A stretch of DNA of 64,000 nucleotides from Escherichia coli (GTDB taxonomy: Bacteria > Pseudomonadota > Gammaproteobacteria > Enterobacterales > Enterobacteriaceae), in the NCBI RefSeq assembly GCF_045037415.1, contig NZ_CP173438.1; one strand, given 5' to 3'. Each line of letters starts with the position of its first letter. Position 1 is the first letter of the stretch. Below the pieces are notes generated by a model that did no database searches, was not told the DNA's origin, and saw nothing but the letters and a program-made list of their open reading frames with translations. Below, one piece after another: positions 45,752 through 58,029 of the stretch. A program made the translations under genes and the position numbers.

Positions 45752-46780
45752 TCAGTCGGGAAGTTGGCGAAGAATTTGCTCCACTCGCTCTTGCAGTGGC
45801 CCCGAAACCGAAAGATAAGGAATGTTCCTGCGCGACAATTCCTGTTCATACCACACCTGTTGCCGTGCGCGAAATACCTCTCCTTGCCGGGTGCCATCCT
45901 GCACGAAGGGAAATTCTGCGCCGCAAAGCACTACCAGAGAGTATTCCCGCTCCGCCAGTTGGTGAAGTTCTTGCGGAGCATGACCATATTGATCAAGGGC
46001 ATAGAATAAGGTCGTGAGTGGCGACGTGTCACATATAAGATAGTGATTAGCTTCTGCTTGTTGTTCCCGGCGTACCTGTTCGCAGGCGATATGCAACAAA
46101 TCATCCGCAGTTAAGATACCGTTTTTTTCTTCCCAATAGTCGCGGCCAAATTCAGCGACATACACCGTATCAAGCACGCCCGCCAGCGCTTTTGAAAGCG
46201 TGCTTTTACCGGTAGATTCGCCACCAAGCAGACAGATACGGCGAACGAAACTGTAATAAACATCATTCGCCAACATGTAGCGATAGCGGTGAACATCGGA
46301 ACGAATAAGCGTTCCCGAAGGCGCTTCATCGCCAACTGGGCGCGCCATTCGAACGTGTTCAACGGGTTGGGCAAAACGCCGCGCCAGCACGTTAGCAAAG
46401 CCATCGCCATAGTCTTCTGCAGTAAATACAGCGTGTGGGCGGCAACGTAATATCTGCAAGCATAGCGTCGCCACATAATGACGGTGGATGTCGGCATCAG
46501 CATTGTTATGCGGGATAGCAGGTAAGTTATAACGCGCAACAAGCTCTGGCGTCAGTACCAAAAACGTCGCTTGCGGGAAGCGCACTTGCAGCCACGTCAG
46601 GCGCTTTTCAGGTTCACAGTCAGGCATTTCCGGCACGGAATAACTGATGATGAACAGTTCTTCACATTGCGCCAGTGCGGTATTGATCAACTTTTCATGA
46701 CCACAATGCAAAGGCGCGAATTTACCAACCACCAGACCCGTTGCAAAAGGCTTCATGATGTTTGCAACTCTTTGCGCCAT
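45752..46780 (-). CDS. NadR-like bifunctional NMN adenylyltransferase / ribosylnicotinamide kinase (no N-terminal HTH)
   Basis: Nucleotidyltransferase motif GKFAPLHCGHEKLI near N-terminus and P-loop GGESTGKSTL in the C-terminal half; alternative coupled start at 46756 (ATGA overlap with pnuC-like stop). Confidence 0.7.
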   Translation of the reverse strand: MAQRVANIMKPFATGLVVGKFAPLHCGHEKLINTALAQCEELFIISYSVPEMPDCEPEKRLTWLQVRFPQATFLVLTPELVARYNLPAIPHNNADADIHRHYVATLCLQILRCRPHAVFTAEDYGDGFANVLARRFAQPVEHVRMARPVGDEAPSGTLIRSDVHRYRYMLANDVYYSFVRRICLLGGESTGKSTLSKALAGVLDTVYVAEFGRDYWEEKNGILTADDLLHIACEQVRREQQAEANHYLICDTSPLTTLFYALDQYGHAPQELHQLAEREYSLVVLCGAEFPFVQDGTRQGEVFRARQQVWYEQELSRRNIPYLSVSGPLQERVEQILRQLPD

Positions 46781-47310
46781 TGATACAAACCATACCAGGC
46801 GTTAATCCAGAACAGGAAATATAAGCCAGCGGTCAGGTTTAAACCGCGCGTCATATACAGTGGCACCGCCAGGGTATTCACCGCTAACCAGACGTACCAG
46901 TTTTCGATACGTCTTCCCATCAACATGAATTGTGCCAGAACGCTGAAGGTCAAAATCAACGAATCCAGCCAGGGTGCCCAAGCATTGGTAAAGGTGTGGA
47001 GTAAAAAGCCGTAACCGCCTGCCACGACGACAGCACAGAGCAACAAAAGGAAAAAGTGACTGGCTTGCGTTCGGCGCACCGGCAAGATGTCGCCACCCTG
47101 ACCTTTCAGCCAGTGGATCCAGCCAGTGATGCTGGTCACGATGAAGAATAACTGGAGCGTAACGTCGGCATAGAGTTGCACGGACCAAAAAACCCAGCCG
47201 TACAATATGCTGCCAATTATGCCGATCCACCATGTATGCACATTGTTTCTGGCAGCCAGCCAGACGGAAACCGCGTATGCCAGACACGCGGCGATTTCTG
47301 AATAAGACAT
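46753..47310 (-). CDS. PnuC-family nicotinamide riboside transporter
   Basis: 185-aa polytopic ORF with tryptophan-rich PnuC-like segments; directly upstream of and overlapping the NadR-like gene. Confidence 0.7.
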   Translation of the reverse strand: MSYSEIAACLAYAVSVWLAARNNVHTWWIGIIGSILYGWVFWSVQLYADVTLQLFFIVTSITGWIHWLKGQGGDILPVRRTQASHFFLLLLCAVVVAGGYGFLLHTFTNAWAPWLDSLILTFSVLAQFMLMGRRIENWYVWLAVNTLAVPLYMTRGLNLTAGLYFLFWINAWYGLYQWRKELQTS

Positions 47311-49880: not shown

Positions 49881-49952
49881 AACGAATGGTGTTACCTGCT
49901 GTTGAATGGGGGACAAGAGAGTATAGCGAGAAACAGTTTCTCGCTACAGCAT

Positions 49953-50987
49953 TTAACGCCCCCGCTTTCCGGTGGAAGCGCGAATTTGCAGGGTCGGGCG
50001 ATAGATGTAATGGCTGAGCGGTGCGTCTGGTTGCGCAATACGCCGTAAAATTTGCTGCGCCGCCTGTTTCCCCAGAGCCAATGGTTCTACCGCAATTGTG
50101 GTTAACGGCGGGTTACTGTAAGCACAAGCCGCCACGCCATCATTACCAATCAACGAAATATCTTCCCCGGCAAATAATCCTCTTTCGCCTAGTGCCGACT
50201 CCGCGCCAAAAGCCATTAAATCGTTATAACAAATCACCGCTGTGGGTGGCGAAGGCATATCCAACAGCTGTTGCATCAACTGGTAGCCGTTGGCCTGAGT
50301 CGGTTCAGCACGCAGCGAAAAAGCATCAGTACTCCACGGCTGTAAACCATGGTGATTCATCGCCTCAAGGTATCCCTGATAACGCATATGGTGCGTAAGA
50401 CCACCAATAAACACGATATCTCTGTGCCCTTGTTGAATGAGATATTCCGTCGCTTCCCGTACACCTGCGTGGCTGTCCACGCCAACGTAATCGACGGGCA
50501 ATTGTTGCCAATCCAGAGGGCGCATCGTGATTAATAAGGGTGTGGAACTGTTGGCATAACGCTGTAAATCGGCTTCTGAGGTACTGTTCACTGGACAGAG
50601 GACAATGCCCGCGACGTGGTGTTCCAGCAAGGTATCAAGCACCTGTTTTTGCCGGTCACTACGCTGGGAGGTATTGGACATCACGGTGATAAAACCGTGC
50701 TCCGCCAGCGTCATCTCAAGACCCATAGTAAATTCAGCGAAGAAAGGATTTATCAAATCGTCAATGACTACGCCGATAGTTAGCGATTTTTGCGAACGCA
50801 GATTGGCAGCAAAACGGTTATAGACATAGCCTAATTGTTCAATGGCTTGCTGGACTTTTTGTTGCGTCTCTTTTTTGATAAGTGAACTGTCGTTGAGAAC
50901 CAGCGATACAGTCGATTTCGAAACGCCAGCCGCACGCGCAACATCGGTTAATGTTACCCGCTTTCTTCCTGTATCCGACTTCGCCAT
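49953..50987 (-). CDS. LacI-family transcriptional regulator
   Basis: Start at MAKSDTGRKRVTLTDVARAAGVSKSTVSLVLN (HTH), then periplasmic-binding-protein-like sugar-binding fold; divergent from the adjacent operon. Confidence 0.85.
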   Translation of the reverse strand: MAKSDTGRKRVTLTDVARAAGVSKSTVSLVLNDSSLIKKETQQKVQQAIEQLGYVYNRFAANLRSQKSLTIGVVIDDLINPFFAEFTMGLEMTLAEHGFITVMSNTSQRSDRQKQVLDTLLEHHVAGIVLCPVNSTSEADLQRYANSSTPLLITMRPLDWQQLPVDYVGVDSHAGVREATEYLIQQGHRDIVFIGGLTHHMRYQGYLEAMNHHGLQPWSTDAFSLRAEPTQANGYQLMQQLLDMPSPPTAVICYNDLMAFGAESALGERGLFAGEDISLIGNDGVAACAYSNPPLTTIAVEPLALGKQAAQQILRRIAQPDAPLSHYIYRPTLQIRASTGKRGR

Positions 50988-51242
50988 GCCTGCTCCAAAC
51001 CCCCATAAGATCAAGGCAATTACTTTATCATAATCTCCTTTTACTCATGCGATCCGTTAACGCAAGGGATCGCAGGAGATCGTCGTTTCGATCACAGATT
51101 CGCACTTCCCTTGTTGTGTTTTTTACACCCTAATCGTACAAATTACGCATAAATTAGATCGTTCCAATTAATTTATGAAAATTATCATATTGTTTTAAAT
51201 GTATATTTTTAATTATTTTTATATCGAAACAAGGAAATTATT

Positions 51243-52814
51243 ATGTGCTCTGTACGCACGATCACTGCACCGGAAGCTGCAGATTTGATTGTTGATGGCG
51301 CAGTTGTCACCGTCTCCTCCTCCAGTGGAATGGGGTGTCCGGATGCGGTGCTGGCAGCAATAGGTGAACGCTTTCAACGTGCCGGACATCCGCAAAACAT
51401 CACCTCCATCCACCCTATCGCCGCTGGTGATATGTATGGCGTAAAAGGCATCGATCATCTGGCGCAACCGGGCTTACTGGCAAAAGTGATCGCTGGCTCC
51501 TACCCCTCCGGTCCATCATCAATGACGCCTCCGTTAATCTGGCAAATGATCAATGACAACGCGATCCCCGCCTGGAATCTGCCTTCCGGGATCTTATTTG
51601 ATATGCACCGGGAAGCGGCGGCTCATCGTCCTGGCGTGCTGACACAAACAGGCATGGATACCTATGTGGATCCCCTGTTGCAGGGCGGTGCAATGAATGA
51701 AAAAGCGGCGCAACAATCTCTGGTTGAACGTGTTCGATTTGCTAACGACGACTGGCTGTTTTTCCCCAGTATCGTGCCGCAGGTGGCGATCATTCGCGCT
51801 ACCACTGCCGATGAACGCGGCAACCTGACTTATGAACATGAAGGGGCTTATCTGGGGCCACTGGAACAGGCTACTGCCGTTCGCAATAATGGTGGCATCA
51901 TAATTGCGCAAGTAAAACGACAGGTTGCCGCCGGAAGTCTGAAACCAAAAGAGGTGCGTATTCCGGGTGTACTGGTGGATTACATCGTGATTGCGCCGGA
52001 ACAAACACAAACGACACAAACGCAATATGAACCTGCCATTTCCGGCGAAATCAGTCGTCCGCTGTCAGCCTTTCGTTATATGGAACATGGCCCGGCGCGA
52101 GTTATTGCCCAGCGAGTCGCGCAAGAACTACAAAGTGGAGATGCGGTAAATATTGGCTTTGGTATTTCTGCCAACGTACCACGCATTTTACTGGAACAAG
52201 GTCGCCACGGTGACGTCACCTGGCTGCTGGAACAGGGCGCGATTGGCGGAGTTCCACTGCTGGAATTTCAGTTCGGTTGTGCCTCTAATGCAGAAGCATT
52301 TTTGCCCTCTCCCCAGCAGTTCACCTATTTCCAGGGTGGTGGTTTTGATCTCACTCTGATGTCGTTTTTACAAATCGGCGCAGATGGCTCAGTGAACGTC
52401 TCACATCTCCCCGCTCGTCCACATGTCACTGCCGGATGCGGTGGATTTATTGATATCACCTCACATGCGAAACGCATTATTTTCTCTGGCTTTTTCAATG
52501 CCGGTGCCCAACTGCAACTGGAAGAGGGTCAGCTGCGTATCATTAAAGAAGGCAAAGCCAAAAAACTGGTACAGGACGTCGCCCACGTGACGTTCTCCGG
52601 CAAACGCGCAATAAGACTCGGGCAACAAGTACAGTACATTACTGAACGCTGCGTTCTGGAATTAACCCCAGACGGGCTACTGGTCACAGAAATTGCCCCA
52701 GGTATTGATCCTGAACGCGACATTCTCGCCCAAAGCGATGCCCCACTCCGTCTGGCAGACGATCTCAAACTAATGAATCCCCTCTATTTTCAACAAGGAA
52801 GTCACCATGAATAA
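51243..52814 (+). CDS. CoA-transferase-like protein (acyl-CoA:carboxylate CoA-transferase or acetyl-CoA hydrolase/transferase superfamily)
   Basis: 523-aa soluble ORF with two-domain organisation resembling fused CoA transferases; family assignment by eye only; SD AAGGAA upstream. Confidence 0.55.
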   Translation: MCSVRTITAPEAADLIVDGAVVTVSSSSGMGCPDAVLAAIGERFQRAGHPQNITSIHPIAAGDMYGVKGIDHLAQPGLLAKVIAGSYPSGPSSMTPPLIWQMINDNAIPAWNLPSGILFDMHREAAAHRPGVLTQTGMDTYVDPLLQGGAMNEKAAQQSLVERVRFANDDWLFFPSIVPQVAIIRATTADERGNLTYEHEGAYLGPLEQATAVRNNGGIIIAQVKRQVAAGSLKPKEVRIPGVLVDYIVIAPEQTQTTQTQYEPAISGEISRPLSAFRYMEHGPARVIAQRVAQELQSGDAVNIGFGISANVPRILLEQGRHGDVTWLLEQGAIGGVPLLEFQFGCASNAEAFLPSPQQFTYFQGGGFDLTLMSFLQIGADGSVNVSHLPARPHVTAGCGGFIDITSHAKRIIFSGFFNAGAQLQLEEGQLRIIKEGKAKKLVQDVAHVTFSGKRAIRLGQQVQYITERCVLELTPDGLLVTEIAPGIDPERDILAQSDAPLRLADDLKLMNPLYFQQGSHHE

Positions 52815-53586
52815 CGGCACCATTGACCTCCAGCGCAACGGTTTCATTGCCACTTTGGTGATTAATCGCCCGGCGAAACTCAACGCATTAACCCCAGAGA
52901 TGCTCGAACAACTGCTGGCGCATTGCCACACGTTGGAAACTGATTCGGAGATCCGCGTAGTACTGCTGACCAGTGCCAGTGAAAAAGCGTTTTGTGTCGG
53001 CGCGGATATTCATCGCTGGACCTCTCTTTCTGCACTCGATATGTGGCGCAACTGGATCCGCCGCGGTCATCAGGCATTTGATGCTCTGGCACAACTGCCA
53101 CAGCCCGTAATCGCCCTGTTGCACGGCCTGGCTTATGGCGGTGGTCTGGAACTGGCTGCTACCGCCGATATCCGTATTTGTAGCGCCGAAGCACAAATGG
53201 CACTACCAGAAACCGGGCTGGCGACAGTGCCTGGCTGGTCAGGAACGCAGCGGCTGACGGCACTGCTTGGGCGCTCACTGGTGAAAGAACTGGTATTTAC
53301 CGGTGAACCACTGGATGCACAGCGGGCACTGTCCTGCGGGCTGGTGAATCGCGTTGTCGCCAGGGAGGCGTTACACGACGCCGGACTGCAACTGGCACAA
53401 CGTATCGCCCAGCGTGCTCCCGTTGCAGTGCAGATCGCCAAGCAGGTTATTGATGCCGGAGAAGGTATTGCTGTGGCCTCGACGCTTGAAGCACTGGCTG
53501 GCGCTTTTTCCGCCACGACTGAAGATGCTCATGAAGGCAGTCAGGCATTTACTGAGAAGCGTCAACCGCACTTTCAGGCACGCTGA
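52807..53586 (+). CDS. Enoyl-CoA hydratase/isomerase (crotonase-fold) family enzyme
   Basis: 259-aa ORF with crotonase patterns (LNALTPEM, oxyanion-hole region FCVGADI, GLAYGGGLELA); 8-bp overlap with upstream gene. Confidence 0.8.
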   Translation: MNNGTIDLQRNGFIATLVINRPAKLNALTPEMLEQLLAHCHTLETDSEIRVVLLTSASEKAFCVGADIHRWTSLSALDMWRNWIRRGHQAFDALAQLPQPVIALLHGLAYGGGLELAATADIRICSAEAQMALPETGLATVPGWSGTQRLTALLGRSLVKELVFTGEPLDAQRALSCGLVNRVVAREALHDAGLQLAQRIAQRAPVAVQIAKQVIDAGEGIAVASTLEALAGAFSATTEDAHEGSQAFTEKRQPHFQAR

Positions 53587-53612
53587 TCGCCTCTTACAAG
53601 GAAAGAAAGATA

Positions 53613-54893
53613 ATGAATATGACAACCTCTGTTCCCCAAACGCCTTCTTTATTTCGGCGAATAATGACAAAACTCGCGGCCTTTGCACCTGGCATCTTTC
53701 TTATTGGCTACAGCATCGGAACAGGCAGCATCACCACTATGGCTAAAGCAGGTGCTAACTATGGTGTCTCGCTCATGTGGGCCGTGGCGCTTTCTTGCAT
53801 TGTTACCTGGTTTTTAATCCGTATTTATGGTCGTTATGCTTCCGTCACTGGTGAACGCGCGTTGACTGCATTTCGTCGCCATATCCATCCCGGCGTTGCG
53901 ATGTTGTTTCTGATCGGGTTAACCGTTGCCGTGAGCGGTTCCATTATGGGGGTAATGGGTATTCTGGCGGATGTAATGGCAACATGGTCCACGACCTGGT
54001 TTAGTGGCGGTATCTCAGCTCTCGCCTGGGCTATCGCGATGGTCATTATGATTAACGTGATGCTCTGGACCAACAGCAACGCCGGGTTCGACAAAATCCT
54101 CTCCGCGCTGGTTGGCATTATGGGGCTGGCGTTTGTGATTAATTTTTTCATTATGATGCCGCCGGTCGCAGATCTGCTGGCCGGATTTATTCCGTCTGTT
54201 CCCGATCCTGTCGCTGGCGATAACAGTACGCCATTTCTGATAATTTCTGGCATGGTGGGTACCACCGTAGCACCAGCAATGTTTCTTATGCGCACGACCC
54301 TGGTAAAAAGTAATGGTTGGGGTGTGGACAATTTGCCTCATCAAAATCGTGATGCCATTGTCAGTGCAGGAATGATGTTCATCATCAGTGCGGCGGTGAT
54401 GGCTGCGGCTGCGGGTACGTTGTACCAAACTGGCACAGGTTTAAATAATGCCTCGCAAATGGTCATTATTCTCGAACCTATTGCTGGCTCAGCTGCCGTG
54501 GGGCTCTTTGTTATTGGTATTGTTGCAGCCGGGCTTTCCAGCCAGTTCCCAAATTTGCTGTTAACGCCCTGGCTGCTGGCTGACTGGCGTGATACCAGCA
54601 ACGAAGTTAGCCCAGGTTACCGTATCCTGATGACGGTTATGTCTCTGCTTTGTCTGGTTGTGCCGCTGTTCCACGCACGCCCGGTATTGGTGATGATTGC
54701 CAGCCAGGCCTTTAACGCCATTATTCTGCCGCTGACTGTTTTATGTATGTTCTGGCTGGCGAACAAGCCTTCGTTAATGGGCAAATATCGTTGCTCACGC
54801 TGGGAAAACGTCATGTTTATTGCCATAAGCGTATTTACGCTAATCATGGGCTATATGGCAATGAGCGGCTTAATCGAAAGTCTGATGAAATAG
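53613..54893 (+). CDS. NRAMP-fold membrane transporter, divergent (canonical metal-binding motif not conserved)
   Basis: 426-aa polytopic ORF whose N-terminal helices align in pattern with MntH, but the DPGN motif position reads IGTGS. Confidence 0.55.
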   Translation: MNMTTSVPQTPSLFRRIMTKLAAFAPGIFLIGYSIGTGSITTMAKAGANYGVSLMWAVALSCIVTWFLIRIYGRYASVTGERALTAFRRHIHPGVAMLFLIGLTVAVSGSIMGVMGILADVMATWSTTWFSGGISALAWAIAMVIMINVMLWTNSNAGFDKILSALVGIMGLAFVINFFIMMPPVADLLAGFIPSVPDPVAGDNSTPFLIISGMVGTTVAPAMFLMRTTLVKSNGWGVDNLPHQNRDAIVSAGMMFIISAAVMAAAAGTLYQTGTGLNNASQMVIILEPIAGSAAVGLFVIGIVAAGLSSQFPNLLLTPWLLADWRDTSNEVSPGYRILMTVMSLLCLVVPLFHARPVLVMIASQAFNAIILPLTVLCMFWLANKPSLMGKYRCSRWENVMFIAISVFTLIMGYMAMSGLIESLMK

Positions 54894-54903
54894 GTGGGAC
54901 GCA

Positions 54904-56940
54904 ATGATTGACGAAACGCTAACGGCGCTCACTGATATCAAAATGCCCCATTACGCACCGCTGGCTCAAGCCAGCGGTAGTATCGACCTTAACGGTACCA
55001 TTTTACCAGAGTACTGCTGCAACACGCTGGTTCTGGGCAGTGGCGCGGCAGGATGGCGAGCTGCCGTCGAGCTGAAACGGCAAAATGTCGATGTAATGGT
55101 CGCCTCCAGCAAAGCCTTCTGGGGCACTTCCGCCTGTTCTGGTTCCGATAAACAAACGCTTCACACCGCGAATACGCGTGCAAATGGTGACCATTTTCTG
55201 ACATTAAGTAACACCCTGGCGGCAGGTGGTGCGATGGATCATGACACCGCATATGTTGAGGCGGTCGGATCGGTGAACACCTGTGAAGTACTGAAATATC
55301 TGGGTCTGGATCTGCCTGAAGATCTCTTTGGCGCAACGTTGCGTTATCAAACCGATCACGATGAATTTGGCCGTGCCACTAGCTGCGGTCCTCGAACATC
55401 GCGCCTGATGGTGAAGGTGCTGGCCCAGGAGGCAATGCGCCTTAATATTCCTCTTTGCGATCACACAACGGCGATTCATATCCTGACCAGTGGTGAAGGG
55501 GAAAATCGACGAGTCGTGGGGGTGATCGCCATCGATAAAGCCTGTCGGGATAATCCCTGGCGAATGGTCGTGATTCGCTGCCAGCATCTGGTTTTAGCCA
55601 CGGGCGGACCAGGTGAACTTTATCGTGACAGTGTTTATCCGGTGAACTGTTTTAGTGCGTTGGGCATGGCACTGGAAGCAGGTATAACTCTGGTTAATCT
55701 TACGGAAAGTCAGTTTGGTATCGGTACACCGCGCAGCCAGTTTCCGTGGAATCTTTCCGGTACTTACATGCAGGCGATGCCGCGCATCTATTCGCAGGAC
55801 CACTCCGGGCGTCAGTATAATTTTCTGGCAGCTTATTACCCCACGACTCGTATGCTGGCCTCCGCAATATTTCGTAAAGGTTACCAGTGGCCGTTTCACG
55901 CGGAACGAATGCTGGAATATGGCTCCAGCCTGCTGGATGTCGCAGTTTATGAAGAGACTCAAAAAGGGCGCGATGTTTTTCTTGATTTTCTACGGGAACC
56001 AGAACCCGCAGCGGACGGAACGTCATTCAACCTGCAAGAACTGGATGATGATGTCATCGACTATCTGCAACAAAATCACGCCCTGTTGGCACAACCGCTG
56101 GCGAGATTAACACAGATGAATCCTCTGGCTATTCGTTTGTATCAGATGCACGGTCATGATCTCACAGCCTCACCGCTCAAGTTTACGCTAAATAATCAAC
56201 ATCTTAATGGCGGAATTGAAGTTGATATTTGGGGACGTACATCGCTAACTGGTTGTTATGCTGCCGGAGAAAATGCCGGAACACATGGTGTCACGCGCCC
56301 AGGTGGAGCAGCGCTCAATGCCGGGCAAGTTTTCGCCCGCCGCTGTGCATTACATATTGCTCATCAGAAAAGCCAGGACCGGCCTCTCGAGAGGCAACAA
56401 ATTCTCAGTACGATTAATGAGGCGCAACAGTACCTGAATCAGGGGCTGCTACGTGACGACGTGCGAGAAACGATACAAAATACCATGAGCCACCATGCCG
56501 CAATTTTGTGTCATACACAGGGGATCAACACTGCCGCGCAAACCCTGGCAACACTTTGTGAAGATATTCGCCGGGAAGGTATTCAATGCGATGAAAACAG
56601 CCTGGCACAATCTTTCCAGTGGCGGCAAAGTGCGCAACTGGCGCTGGCTGTACTGCGTTCTTTACAATGTTATGTCGAAAACGGTGGTGGGAGTCGTGGT
56701 GCCAGGGCTATCTATGATGGCGAAGCCGGTATTGCACCGCAAACACCAGGTGGGCCACTCCTGGCCTGGCGTTTTCGGCCAGAAAATCAGGATGCCAGGC
56801 AATATATGATTTGTGTTTGTCGGGAAGCTAATGATTACCAAACCTGGACTCGCCCGTGCCGTGAACGGGGCGTATTAACGCTAACCAACTTTGAGCGCCA
56901 GTGGCAAAACTGGATTGCGGCGACGCCGTTTCAATACTGA
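54904..56940 (+). CDS. FAD-dependent oxidoreductase, fumarate reductase / succinate dehydrogenase flavoprotein-like
   Basis: N-terminal dinucleotide fold LVLGSGAAGWRAA and C-terminal GCYAAGENAGTHGVTRPGGAALNAG motif typical of the FRD/SDH/aspartate-oxidase flavoprotein family; 678 aa. Confidence 0.7.
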   Translation: MIDETLTALTDIKMPHYAPLAQASGSIDLNGTILPEYCCNTLVLGSGAAGWRAAVELKRQNVDVMVASSKAFWGTSACSGSDKQTLHTANTRANGDHFLTLSNTLAAGGAMDHDTAYVEAVGSVNTCEVLKYLGLDLPEDLFGATLRYQTDHDEFGRATSCGPRTSRLMVKVLAQEAMRLNIPLCDHTTAIHILTSGEGENRRVVGVIAIDKACRDNPWRMVVIRCQHLVLATGGPGELYRDSVYPVNCFSALGMALEAGITLVNLTESQFGIGTPRSQFPWNLSGTYMQAMPRIYSQDHSGRQYNFLAAYYPTTRMLASAIFRKGYQWPFHAERMLEYGSSLLDVAVYEETQKGRDVFLDFLREPEPAADGTSFNLQELDDDVIDYLQQNHALLAQPLARLTQMNPLAIRLYQMHGHDLTASPLKFTLNNQHLNGGIEVDIWGRTSLTGCYAAGENAGTHGVTRPGGAALNAGQVFARRCALHIAHQKSQDRPLERQQILSTINEAQQYLNQGLLRDDVRETIQNTMSHHAAILCHTQGINTAAQTLATLCEDIRREGIQCDENSLAQSFQWRQSAQLALAVLRSLQCYVENGGGSRGARAIYDGEAGIAPQTPGGPLLAWRFRPENQDARQYMICVCREANDYQTWTRPCRERGVLTLTNFERQWQNWIAATPFQY

Positions 56941-57045: not shown

Positions 57046-58029
57046 ATGGCAACGCGCATCGAATTTCACAAGCACGGTGGCCCGGAAGTACTTCAGGCCG
57101 TGGAGTTCACTCCTGCCGATCCGGCGGAGAATGAAATCCAGGTCAAAAATAAAGCCATCGGCATCAATTTTATCGACACGTATATCCGCAGCGGCCTTTA
57201 CCCGCCACCATCGCTACCCAGCGGATTAGGCACCGAAGCGGCAGGCATCGTGAGTAAAGTCGGCAGTGGTGTAAAGCATATTAAGGCAGGCGATCGCGTA
57301 GTCTATGCACAATCGGCATTAGGCGCTTACAGCTCTATGCATAACATTAATGCGGATAAAGCGGCGATTCTGCCTGCGGCAATTTCTTTTGAGCAAGCTG
57401 CGGCATCCTTCCTGAAAGGCTTAACGGTTTATTATCTGCTGCGCAAAACCTATGAAATTAAACCCGATGAACAGTTCCTGTTCCACGCAGCGGCTGGCGG
57501 CGTTGGCTTGATTGCCTGCCAGTGGGCAAAAGCCCTGGGCGCGAAACTTATCGGCACCGTGGGAACCGCGCAAAAAGCGCAGAGTGCGCTAAAAGCGGGC
57601 GCATGGCAGGTTATTAACTATCGTGAAGAGAATCTGGTCGAGCGGTTAAAAGAGATCACCGGTGGCAAGAAAGTGCGCGTGGTGTACGATTCAGTGGGCA
57701 GAGACACCTGGGAACGGTCGCTGGATTGCCTGCAACGCCGCGGCTTAATGGTGAGTTTTGGCAACTCATCAGGTGCGGTTACCGGTGTGAACTTAGGCAT
57801 TCTCAATCAGAAAGGCTCGTTGTATGTGACACGCCCTTCCCTGCAAGGCTATATCACCACGCGGGAGGAATTAACCGAGGCCAGTAATGAACTGTTCTCT
57901 TTGATTGCCAGCGGTGTGATTAAGGTCGATGTCGCCGAGCAGCAGAAATATCCGCTGAAGGATGCGCGGCGTGCGCATGAGATTCTGGAAAGCCGGGCGA
58001 CGCAGGGTTCCAGCCTGTTGATTCCATAA
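57046..58029 (+). CDS. qorA: NADPH:quinone oxidoreductase
   Basis: 327-aa zeta-crystallin-like ORF MATRIEFHKHGGPEVLQAVEFTPADPAENEIQVKNKAIGINFID. Confidence 0.95.
   Translation: MATRIEFHKHGGPEVLQAVEFTPADPAENEIQVKNKAIGINFIDTYIRSGLYPPPSLPSGLGTEAAGIVSKVGSGVKHIKAGDRVVYAQSALGAYSSMHNINADKAAILPAAISFEQAAASFLKGLTVYYLLRKTYEIKPDEQFLFHAAAGGVGLIACQWAKALGAKLIGTVGTAQKAQSALKAGAWQVINYREENLVERLKEITGGKKVRVVYDSVGRDTWERSLDCLQRRGLMVSFGNSSGAVTGVNLGILNQKGSLYVTRPSLQGYITTREELTEASNELFSLIASGVIKVDVAEQQKYPLKDARRAHEILESRATQGSSLLIP

Follow-up and report, generated by a model that had tools for sequence, protein, structure and literature searches.

What is a block of five genes doing between dnaB and qorA of Escherichia coli, two genes that in K-12 MG1655 are divergent neighbours with a spacer of only 82 bp? 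In the 64,000-nucleotide stretch of E. coli DNA analysed here (the window), five long open reading frames (ORFs) at 49953-56940 stand in the place of that spacer. They encode a LacI-type repressor and, divergent from it, a CoA-transferase, a crotonase-fold hydratase, an Nramp-fold permease and a flavoprotein. The same 7-kb block occupies the dnaB-qorA junction in 826 of 5426 complete E. coli genomes (~15%), and is nearly always entire and chromosomal. We favour, tentatively and with slightly less than even confidence, the explanation that these genes form an inducible catabolic operon for a hexuronate-type sugar acid. This acid would most likely have the shape of a six-membered polyhydroxy carboxylate, for example a uronate outside the range of UxaC or something closely analogous. 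The specific chemistry of the operon is inferred only, with lower confidence than the sugar-acid reading, and the reaction of the flavoprotein is its least determined step.

A preliminary description, made from the letters of this DNA, had noted that ~7 kb separates dnaB from qorA, neighbours in K-12, and that a LacI-type repressor gene diverges from a packed four-gene unit on the plus strand. The MG1655 spacer and the ORF list of the window bear this out, the ORFs lying exactly as described. Profile and structure searches also agree with the protein family it gave to each of the four plus-strand products. The genes and the candidate operator are as follows.

49953..50987, minus strand: LacI-family repressor gene, c5025 in CFT073 (RefSeq start, 344 aa; open frame to 51014; NCBIfam, RefSeq)
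51153..51168, no strand: candidate operator ATTAGATCGTTCCAAT, palindromic over 16 bp around a central CG; the CoA-transferase start codon follows 75 bp downstream
51243..52814, plus strand: CoA-transferase of family I (YdiF/Pct-type, fused alpha-beta), 523 aa (PDB 2AHU, YdiF)
52807..53586, plus strand: short-chain enoyl-CoA hydratase/dehydratase of crotonase fold, 259 aa (catalytic motifs)
53613..54893, plus strand: Nramp-fold permease without metal site, 426 aa (Pfam Nramp); predicted sugar-acid importer, replaceable cassette
54904..56940, plus strand: stand-alone SdhA/NadB/AprA-like FAD flavoprotein of an uncharacterised family, 678 aa (FAD_binding_2)

Permeases and enzymes of the operon

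The permease has the Nramp fold, with a match to PF01566 over the full model length (E 2.3e-56), and it passes the NCBIfam Nramp_1 model (60.8 bits vs a cut-off of 50). The residues that bind metal in this fold are gone. The DPGN motif of transmembrane helix 1 (TM1), which supplies the Asp and Asn ligands, is replaced by GTGS, invariantly so in 19 members of the clade. The A-x-x-M-P-H motif of TM6 reads TTVAPA in the E. coli protein, and across the clade the Met position is variable and no His is present. Lys45 and Arg227 are invariant in the same 19 members. The permease thus shares the LeuT-type Nramp fold with NRAMP/SLC11 transporters (MntH, DraNramp, ScaDMT) and a small-residue GTT-x-AP motif in TM6 with the Mg2+ carrier NRMT. 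It differs from both in that its metal ligands are all replaced (D to G, N to S, M to A or variable) and in that its genomic partners are sugar-acid enzymes, not metal-homeostasis genes. We predict that it is not a metal transporter.

The slot that this gene occupies can also be filled by another permease. When the ST131 and CFT073 versions of the block are aligned, identity ends about 3 codons before the hydratase stop codon and returns in the flavoprotein gene, near codon 11. The interval is filled by the Nramp-fold gene in ST131 and by an unrelated major facilitator superfamily (MFS) gene in CFT073. The Nramp cassette is present in 546 genomes and the MFS cassette in 280, which together account for all 826 carriers. 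Two orthologous loci of other enterobacteria are divided in the same way, with the MFS form in one (L007) and the Nramp form in the other (L008). Because two non-homologous permeases share one operon slot, we argue that an organic acid, the substrate of the pathway, would be carried by both. On the grounds of the motif loss and the cassette swap, we reject a role of the Nramp gene in metal uptake. The CFT073 carrier belongs to the metabolite:H+ symporter (MHS) family; its best match is ShiA (267 bits vs a cut-off of 538), followed by ProP and then MFS/TcuC-type carriers, all below their cut-offs.

The company kept by relatives of the Nramp-like permease suggests what kind of acid this might be. 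Six genome contexts of clade members (50-64% identity) were examined with Pfam labels. In Sphingorhabdus, uxuA directly follows the Nramp-like gene; on a gamma-proteobacterial contig, uxuA, uxuB, uxaC and a GntR regulator surround it; and in Litorimonas the order is uxuA, Nramp-like gene, epimerase, uxuB. On one contig the gene lies in a locus with alginate lyase, KdgF, SDR, Eda and KdgK genes, and in two Flavobacteria it is near SusCD, PMI-like or GH88-like genes. A census of 82 loci of this clade, mostly metagenomic, gave these neighbours.

PMI-like cupin: 31 of 82 loci, directly adjacent in 27
UxuA: 30 of 82 loci, above the curated NCBIfam cut-off
TonB-dependent receptor: 27 of 82 loci, assigned by size alone
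GntR regulator: 17 of 82 loci
UxuB: 14 of 82 loci, above the curated NCBIfam cut-off
Alginate-locus genes: 5-10 of 82 loci

The GTGS-bearing clade is large and belongs mostly to marine bacteria. Where the sources name its members at all, they are called 'divalent metal transporter', 'manganese transport protein' or 'Mn2+/Fe2+ NRAMP family transporter'.

The two CoA enzymes appear catalytically competent. The CoA-transferase aligns end to end with E. coli YdiF (PDB 2AHU; phmmer E 3e-100, residues 5-516 of 523). Its LLEQGAIGG is opposite the YdiF segment TVETGPIGG, which we take to be the carrier of the active-site Glu, so that the ExG motif of the beta half is kept. Its GCGGFIDI, opposite GTGGFIDI of YdiF, supplies the GxGG(A/F) oxyanion motif within the expected fused architecture of ~520 aa. 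In the hydratase, GGGLELA and ALPETG hold both catalytic Glu residues (equivalents of rat enoyl-CoA hydratase Glu144 and Glu164, matched on motif rather than on structure). Among solved structures it is closest to 3-hydroxypropionyl-CoA dehydratase (5ZAI) and the clostridial crotonase Crt (5Z7R). Because both Glu residues are kept and because of these relatives, the protein appears to be a genuine (de)hydratase whose substrates are short, polar acyl-CoAs. The preliminary description had suggested an inducible route by which an organic acid is processed in the form of a CoA thioester, and this suggestion is supported by the intact catalytic motifs and by the conserved LacI operator described below.

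The flavoprotein carries a FAD_binding_2 domain, with capping and helical domains, and retains only part of the active site of its dicarboxylate-using relatives. His433 and Arg465, invariant in 25 homologues, align with NadB H351/R386 and FrdA H355/R390, the pair in the FAD domain that binds the carboxylate of the substrate next to the flavin. By contrast, where the QFHPT motif has the His that holds the second carboxylate (FrdA H232, NadB H244), the flavoprotein reads QFGIGT with an invariant G272. No Arg aligns with the catalytic capping-domain Arg, NadB R290, by hhalign, in a stretch of low alignment confidence. SACSGS stands at the covalent-FAD His position, so that the residue for an 8-alpha-histidyl FAD is missing, and no gene for an SdhB- or FrdB-like Fe-S subunit is present in the operon or in 80 related loci. 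The flavoprotein thus appears to be a stand-alone NadB-style enzyme with a monocarboxylate substrate. Fumarate, succinate or aspartate is unlikely as its substrate, given the loss of the second-carboxylate His and its very low equivalog scores, which lie far under every NCBIfam cut-off (e.g. 118 vs 718).

The same protein is distant from its characterised relatives in other ways. It is only 17-21% identical to NadB and to FrdA, SdhA and AprA, and no equivalog model comes near its cut-off. It differs from all of them in the Gly at the QFHPT His, in a rebuilt capping domain with invariant motifs of its own (FPWNLSGTY and KGYQWPxHA) and in an additional C-terminal domain with a GGGSRGAR motif. 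It falls on the SdhA/NadB/AprA branch, not on that of UrdA/KstD, and has neither an FMN-binding nor a cytochrome domain for electron input. A structure search of AFDB50 returned generic names only. Five cysteines are invariant or nearly so in the family (C78, C161, C249, C451 and C536; alignment A1), of which C78 and C161 are within segments of low AlphaFold confidence.

These features bear on the simplest alternative, in which the gene names are read literally: 3-ketoacid or short-chain fatty acid metabolism, an unrelated Mn2+/Fe2+ importer of the Nramp family and a flavoprotein of succinate/aspartate type. The RefSeq protein names, which are generic throughout the block, and the score of the permease against Nramp_1 agree with this reading, as does a 2010 synteny survey in which c5020-c5025 appear as SAC 16 under the annotation-derived label '3-ketoacid metabolism' (PMC2831201). 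We consider it very unlikely. The permease lacks the metal ligands D, N and M as well as the His, with GTGS invariant across its clade, and its gene is swapped precisely for an organic-acid MFS carrier within the same operon. The flavoprotein, far below its equivalog cut-off, lacks the dicarboxylate-binding His of FrdA, SdhA and NadB. In addition, the operon holds no thiolase or 3-hydroxyacyl-CoA dehydrogenase gene, and LacI-type control is atypical for fatty-acid genes.

The candidate operator and the wider regulon

The repressor has the layout of LacI/GalR proteins, an N-terminal helix-turn-helix (HTH) followed by an effector domain like periplasmic binding proteins. LacI and Peripla_BP Pfam domains are recorded for its orthologues in L007 and L008. 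Among NCBIfam models it matches MalI, RbsR, CytR and PurR over their full length (E 1e-55 to 1e-64) and exceeds the cut-off of none. The divergent region (50988-51242), which the preliminary description had proposed to search for a palindromic LacI operator, does contain a candidate: footprinting of the E. coli control region against the two orthologous loci found the palindrome at 51153-51168. It is perfect in L007 (ATTGGAACGTTCCAAT) and carries one mismatch in L008; its length and central CG are those of LacI/GalR operators (16-20 bp), and it is the sole match in the window.

Across 1.73 Mb of fetched loci, the operator has 23 matches with up to two mismatches, against about 0.5 expected by calculation, and it is ~45-fold enriched upstream of regulon genes. 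All but two of the 23 are annotated either inside the ORF call of a CoA-transferase, flavoprotein, GFO or LacI gene or no more than 400 bp upstream of such a gene. In total, the palindrome TTGGAACGTTCCAA precedes genes of these four kinds in ~17 gamma- and alpha-proteobacterial loci. Because the same operator stands ahead of them all, we propose that the CoA-transferase and hydratase, the flavoprotein and the sugar-oxidising enzymes are tied into one regulon with a common repressor type. The E. coli operon would then be a trimmed version of a longer sugar pathway.

A second inverted repeat, GATCG-N6-CGATC, lies at 51078..51093 (no strand) and is conserved in L007 and partly in L008. It holds two GATC sites and is separate from the LacI-type palindrome. 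By inspection it does not fit TGTGA-N6-TCACA, so a CRP site was rejected.

The flavoprotein family extends well beyond E. coli. Its members are ~54% identical among alpha-, beta- and gamma-proteobacteria and are found in Lentisphaerae, Planctomycetes and Verrucomicrobia as well. When ~100,000 species were scanned, each through a single genome, 338 candidate loci were confirmed, and clustering at 50% (E <=1e-30) gave 378 representatives. A neighbour census of 80 non-redundant loci revealed four architectures.

Type I: LacI, then CoA-transferase, hydratase, transporter, flavoprotein; the form of the window
Type II: TetR, then SDR, GFO/IDH/MocA, AP_endonuc_2, MFS, flavoprotein; plant-associated enterobacteria
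Type III: as type II, with hydratase and CoA-transferase replacing GFO
Type IV: sugar ABC transporter, two GMC oxidoreductases, GFO, LacI, flavoprotein, KdgK-like kinase; Rhizobiaceae and Rhodobacteraceae

In type III the hydratase paralogue carries GGGIELA and SNPEVMLG. Type IV loci often also include aldehyde dehydrogenase (ALDH), hydratase and CoA-transferase genes. Because GFO interchanges with CoA-transferase plus hydratase between types II and III, the census suggests that the two are alternative activations of the same elimination, via a ketone or via a thioester. Moreover, the flavoprotein is the constant core of the wider regulon and is often found without the CoA enzymes, which makes it more likely that it acts on the free acid.

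A type IV locus on plasmid pRCCGE531c of Rhizobium sp. CCGE531 (699419-714357) has 13 genes in one direction, in the order CoA-transferase, hydratase, ALDH, sugar ABC transporter, two GMC oxidoreductases, GFO, flavoprotein, KdgK-like kinase and class I aldolase. Levoglucosan dehydrogenase is the nearest match to its GFO protein, and KdgK the nearest to its kinase. This unit is probably the complete form of the pathway, one that starts from a neutral sugar. In 12 alpha-proteobacterial loci the gene immediately after that of the flavoprotein encodes a KdgK-like kinase. Because of this arrangement, we tentatively favour formation of a 2-keto(-3-deoxy) acid over enoate reduction as the predicted role of the flavoprotein.

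Enoate reduction is central to a different proposal, a cai-like electron sink for a small (C3-C5) hydroxy or enoic acid, such as 3-hydroxypropionate/acrylate, 3-hydroxybutyrate/crotonate or a substituted analogue. Here a beta-hydroxy acid would become its enoate via CoA esters, by the action of the CoA-transferase and the hydratase, and the flavoprotein, which resembles fumarate reductase (FRD), would reduce the free enoate as fumarate, urocanate and acrylate reductases do. The nearest relatives of the two CoA enzymes fit this scheme and so does the FRD fold, yet the LacI-type control indicates sugars and the transporters indicate sugar acids rather than small acids. The regulon of the relatives, with its sugar ABC transporters, GFO/IDH/MocA proteins, GMC oxidoreductases and KdgK-like kinase, also speaks against an electron sink, as do the placement of the flavoprotein outside the UrdA/KstD branch and its want of an electron-input domain. 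We judge this alternative unlikely.

E. coli itself has a paralogous module, located between ytfB and rplI in 1447 of the 5426 complete genomes (~27%), with partial remnants in ~1700 further ones. It consists of TetR, then SDR, AP_endonuc_2, hydratase, CoA-transferase, flavoprotein and TRAP-QMP genes, and its proteins are 37-52% identical to their counterparts in the window. One example is found in E. coli Eco_24-2013 (NZ_CM176494.1, 4240135-4249918), where the annotation is generic only. The best PDB matches of its TRAP binding protein are 4OVR, 4X8R, 4N8Y, 4N15, 4N91 and 4MIJ (E 1e-59 to 1e-71), of which we take 4N91 and 4MIJ to be Apre_1383 and Bpro_3107. Galacturonate is present in 4N8Y and glucuronate in 4X8R (PMC11668362), 4N15 was the template on which the glucuronate binder STM3169 was modelled, and Apre_1383 and Bpro_3107 are described as glucuronate binders (PMC7660916). 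In E. whittamii, Entomohabitans and another Escherichia, an MFS protein that is 47% identical to ExuT over its full length takes the place of the TRAP system.

Convergence of four transporter lines (the Nramp-like clade, TRAP, the ExuT-like MFS and MHS) on a hexuronate-like sugar acid is, in our view, moderately supported by these comparisons. The MHS cassette points only to an organic carboxylate and would be less specific than the others.

The ShiA match of that cassette instead raises the idea of a carbocyclic analogue, in which quinate, shikimate or dehydroshikimate would be converted or degraded as a CoA ester, or reduced to dihydroshikimate. There are precedents for both fates: Streptomyces and Alicyclobacillus convert shikimate to cyclohexanecarboxyl-CoA via CoA esters, and lactobacilli form dihydroshikimate by reduction. 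Being an alpha,beta-unsaturated carboxylate, shikimate would suit an FRD-type reductase as well as an enoyl-CoA hydratase, and its ring shape mimics a pyranuronate, so that hexuronate-type transporters could carry quinate or shikimate. In addition, the paralogous modules encode an SDR as well as an AP_endonuc_2 protein, which has the fold of dehydroshikimate dehydratases; the PDB relatives of this protein, however, are only uncharacterised 'sugar isomerase' structures. The ABC importers, GMC pair, ALDH and KdgK-like kinase of the alpha-proteobacterial loci better fit oxidation of a pyranose to a uronate, and the neighbours of the Nramp-like clade are uxuA, uxuB and a PMI-like gene. A carbocyclic substrate therefore seems quite improbable to us.

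A possible route for a sugar acid

For the hexuronate-type operon that we favour, we propose the following sequence of events. The LacI-type repressor would bind the palindrome at 51153-51168, recognised as an operator by its conservation, and the sugar acid or a derivative would presumably release it. The Nramp-fold permease, or the MHS-type carrier in the alternative cassette, would import the acid, a role suggested by the lost metal ligands, the cassette swap and the clade neighbours. The YdiF-type CoA-transferase, whose active site is intact, would form the acyl-CoA thioester from acetyl- or succinyl-CoA, its acid substrate being our supposition, and the CoA could then, in the manner of the carnitine system, be transferred to a further molecule of substrate. 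The thioester would acidify the alpha-proton, so that the crotonase could eliminate the beta-hydroxyl, removing water across the alpha and beta carbons. In the case of a uronyl-CoA, the 4-OH would be eliminated to give the 4,5-unsaturated form, equivalent to 4-deoxy-5-keto-uronate. The latter, the product of polysaccharide lyases, would be converted to pyruvate and glyceraldehyde-3-phosphate via KduI, KduD, KdgK and Eda; kduI and kduD are present in K-12.

From the flavoprotein we expect two-electron, FAD-dependent chemistry at the carbon that adjoins the free carboxylate. It could convert an alpha-hydroxy or alkoxy acid into the 2-keto acid by oxidation, or it could form or reduce an alpha,beta double bond. 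No unique reaction is derivable from the gene context: alpha-oxidation, C4-C5 desaturation or reduction, and oxidative ring opening all fit.

Several points weigh against this explanation. E. coli already has ExuT-UxaCA-UxuAB for glucuronate and galacturonate, which makes the module seem redundant. With the CoA-transferase and hydratase alone, the route would already arrive at a known intermediate; the flavoprotein, which the scheme does not strictly need, is nevertheless the best conserved element and occurs without either CoA enzyme in 59 of the 80 loci. Transporter identities of 40-47% do not fix substrate specificity, and the CFT073 transporter is nearer to carriers of shikimate, alpha-ketoglutarate and tricarballylate than to ExuT. 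The hydratase and the CoA-transferase are nearest to short-chain enzymes (3-hydroxypropionyl-CoA dehydratase and YdiF), so that a C3-C4 acid fits too. Finally, among the operon proteins only the permease passes a curated NCBIfam cut-off, that of the Nramp model.

The presumed substrate class is that of the E. coli hexuronate system (ExuT, UxaC-UxaA, UxuA-UxuB, KduI-KduD, KdgK, Eda), and the likely end point is also the same, a 2-keto-3-deoxy sugar acid leading to 2-keto-3-deoxy-6-phosphogluconate (KDPG). Further common ground is that an ExuT homologue (47%) and hexuronate-type TRAP binders serve the paralogous modules and that the Nramp-like clade adjoins uxuA and uxuB. The operon differs in having a CoA-transferase, a crotonase and a flavoprotein instead of an isomerase, a reductase and a metal-dependent dehydratase, and a LacI-type regulator where the hexuronate system has the GntR-type ExuR and UxuR. 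With caiTABCDE it shares its plan: a dedicated transporter, a CoA-recycling CoA-transferase, a crotonase-fold (de)hydratase and a flavin reductase, with net conversion of a hydroxy acid and no release of a CoA ester. Whereas CaiB is a family III transferase, the operon's enzyme belongs to family I, and whereas CaiA has the acyl-CoA-dehydrogenase fold and works on the thioester, the operon's flavoprotein is SdhA/NadB-like and probably works on the free acid. Transporter fold, regulator and substrate class differ as well.

A sugar acid broken down as a CoA thioester has a further parallel in Klebsiella michiganensis, in which an acid-specific cluster degrades 2-deoxy-D-ribonate as its CoA ester (Price et al. 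2019, PMC6365646). The enzymes there are a CoA-synthetase (ligase), a 3-hydroxyacyl-CoA dehydrogenase, a thiolase and a glycerate kinase; no crotonase-type hydratase is named among them, and an FRD-like flavoprotein is absent. The difference in enzyme set rules out that the module is the same cluster.

A stronger form of our proposal holds that the CoA-transferase, hydratase and flavoprotein constitute an undescribed CoA-thioester uronate pathway, together with a new NadB/FRD-like family of sugar-acid enzymes and the first organic-anion member of SLC11/NRAMP. We regard this combination as possible but doubtful. Its targets would be uronates closed to the isomerase route, such as L-iduronate from host glycosaminoglycans, mannuronate, guluronate or uronates blocked at C1/C2.

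The locus in Escherichia coli and its significance

The insert is bounded by dnaB (48465-49880/49916, minus strand) and qorA (57046-58029, plus strand), and all five of its genes are intact. The plus-strand genes are closely packed, the CoA-transferase and hydratase genes overlapping by 8 bp and the remaining spacers being short. In and beside the insert there are no direct repeats, tRNA, integrase or transposase genes and no deviant composition, which rules out a mobile genomic island. An anti-phage defence system was also rejected: PADLOC gives a weak HTH match for the repressor (E 3e-4) and none for the other four proteins.

Directly 3' of the repressor gene, on its dnaB side, lies one further feature.

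49922..49948, minus strand: terminator-like hairpin, 12-bp stem and T-rich tail; consensus match only

The mechanical ORF list places the dnaB start at a TTG (49916), which extends the 1416-nt gene of the annotation by 36 bp on its upstream side. The true gap between dnaB and the repressor stop codon is ~70 bp, and the hairpin is within it. Just past alr, at 45752-47310 on the minus strand, genes for an AAA-family ATPase and for a PnuC-like nicotinamide riboside transporter form a second small strain-variable insertion of the dnaB-qorA neighbourhood.

Carriers of the block include ST131, CFT073, ATCC 25922, BEN2908 and Nissle 1917. A 2026 comparison lists five unnamed ORFs between qorA and dnaB as absent from adherent-invasive E. 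coli (AIEC) strains and counts two ORFs between alr and tyrB among those likewise absent (PMC12928451), and in a proteome c5025 of CFT073 is a transcription-related protein at raised abundance (PMC9045377). Full-text literature searches, which covered open-access papers, found no functional study of the block. The preliminary description did not recognise the gene combination as a described E. coli pathway, and this judgement holds: the set is absent from K-12 and we found no functional characterisation of it. The gene set is already known to exist; the combination and context of known enzyme families have not been described before.

For two protein subfamilies, the likely functions differ from the family names: a NadB/FRD-like flavoenzyme that may act on sugar acids, and an Nramp clade that may not transport metal. 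A non-metal Nramp clade would broaden the substrate range of the family and would correct the name 'divalent metal transporter' for 546 E. coli genes and for those clade members of marine bacteria that carry a name. Likewise, one substrate assignment would annotate thousands of genes now called 'FAD-binding protein', given the 1447 genomes with the paralogous module and the 338 loci across species. If CoA-thioester dehydration of sugar acids is true, it would be a new solution to a step normally carried out by metal-dependent dehydratases or lyases. The operon marks the sampled extraintestinal-pathogenic and probiotic lineages (ST131 to Nissle 1917, as listed above), and its substrate may be a nutrient or electron acceptor that sets these carriers apart from K-12-like E. 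coli in gut, urine or tissue.

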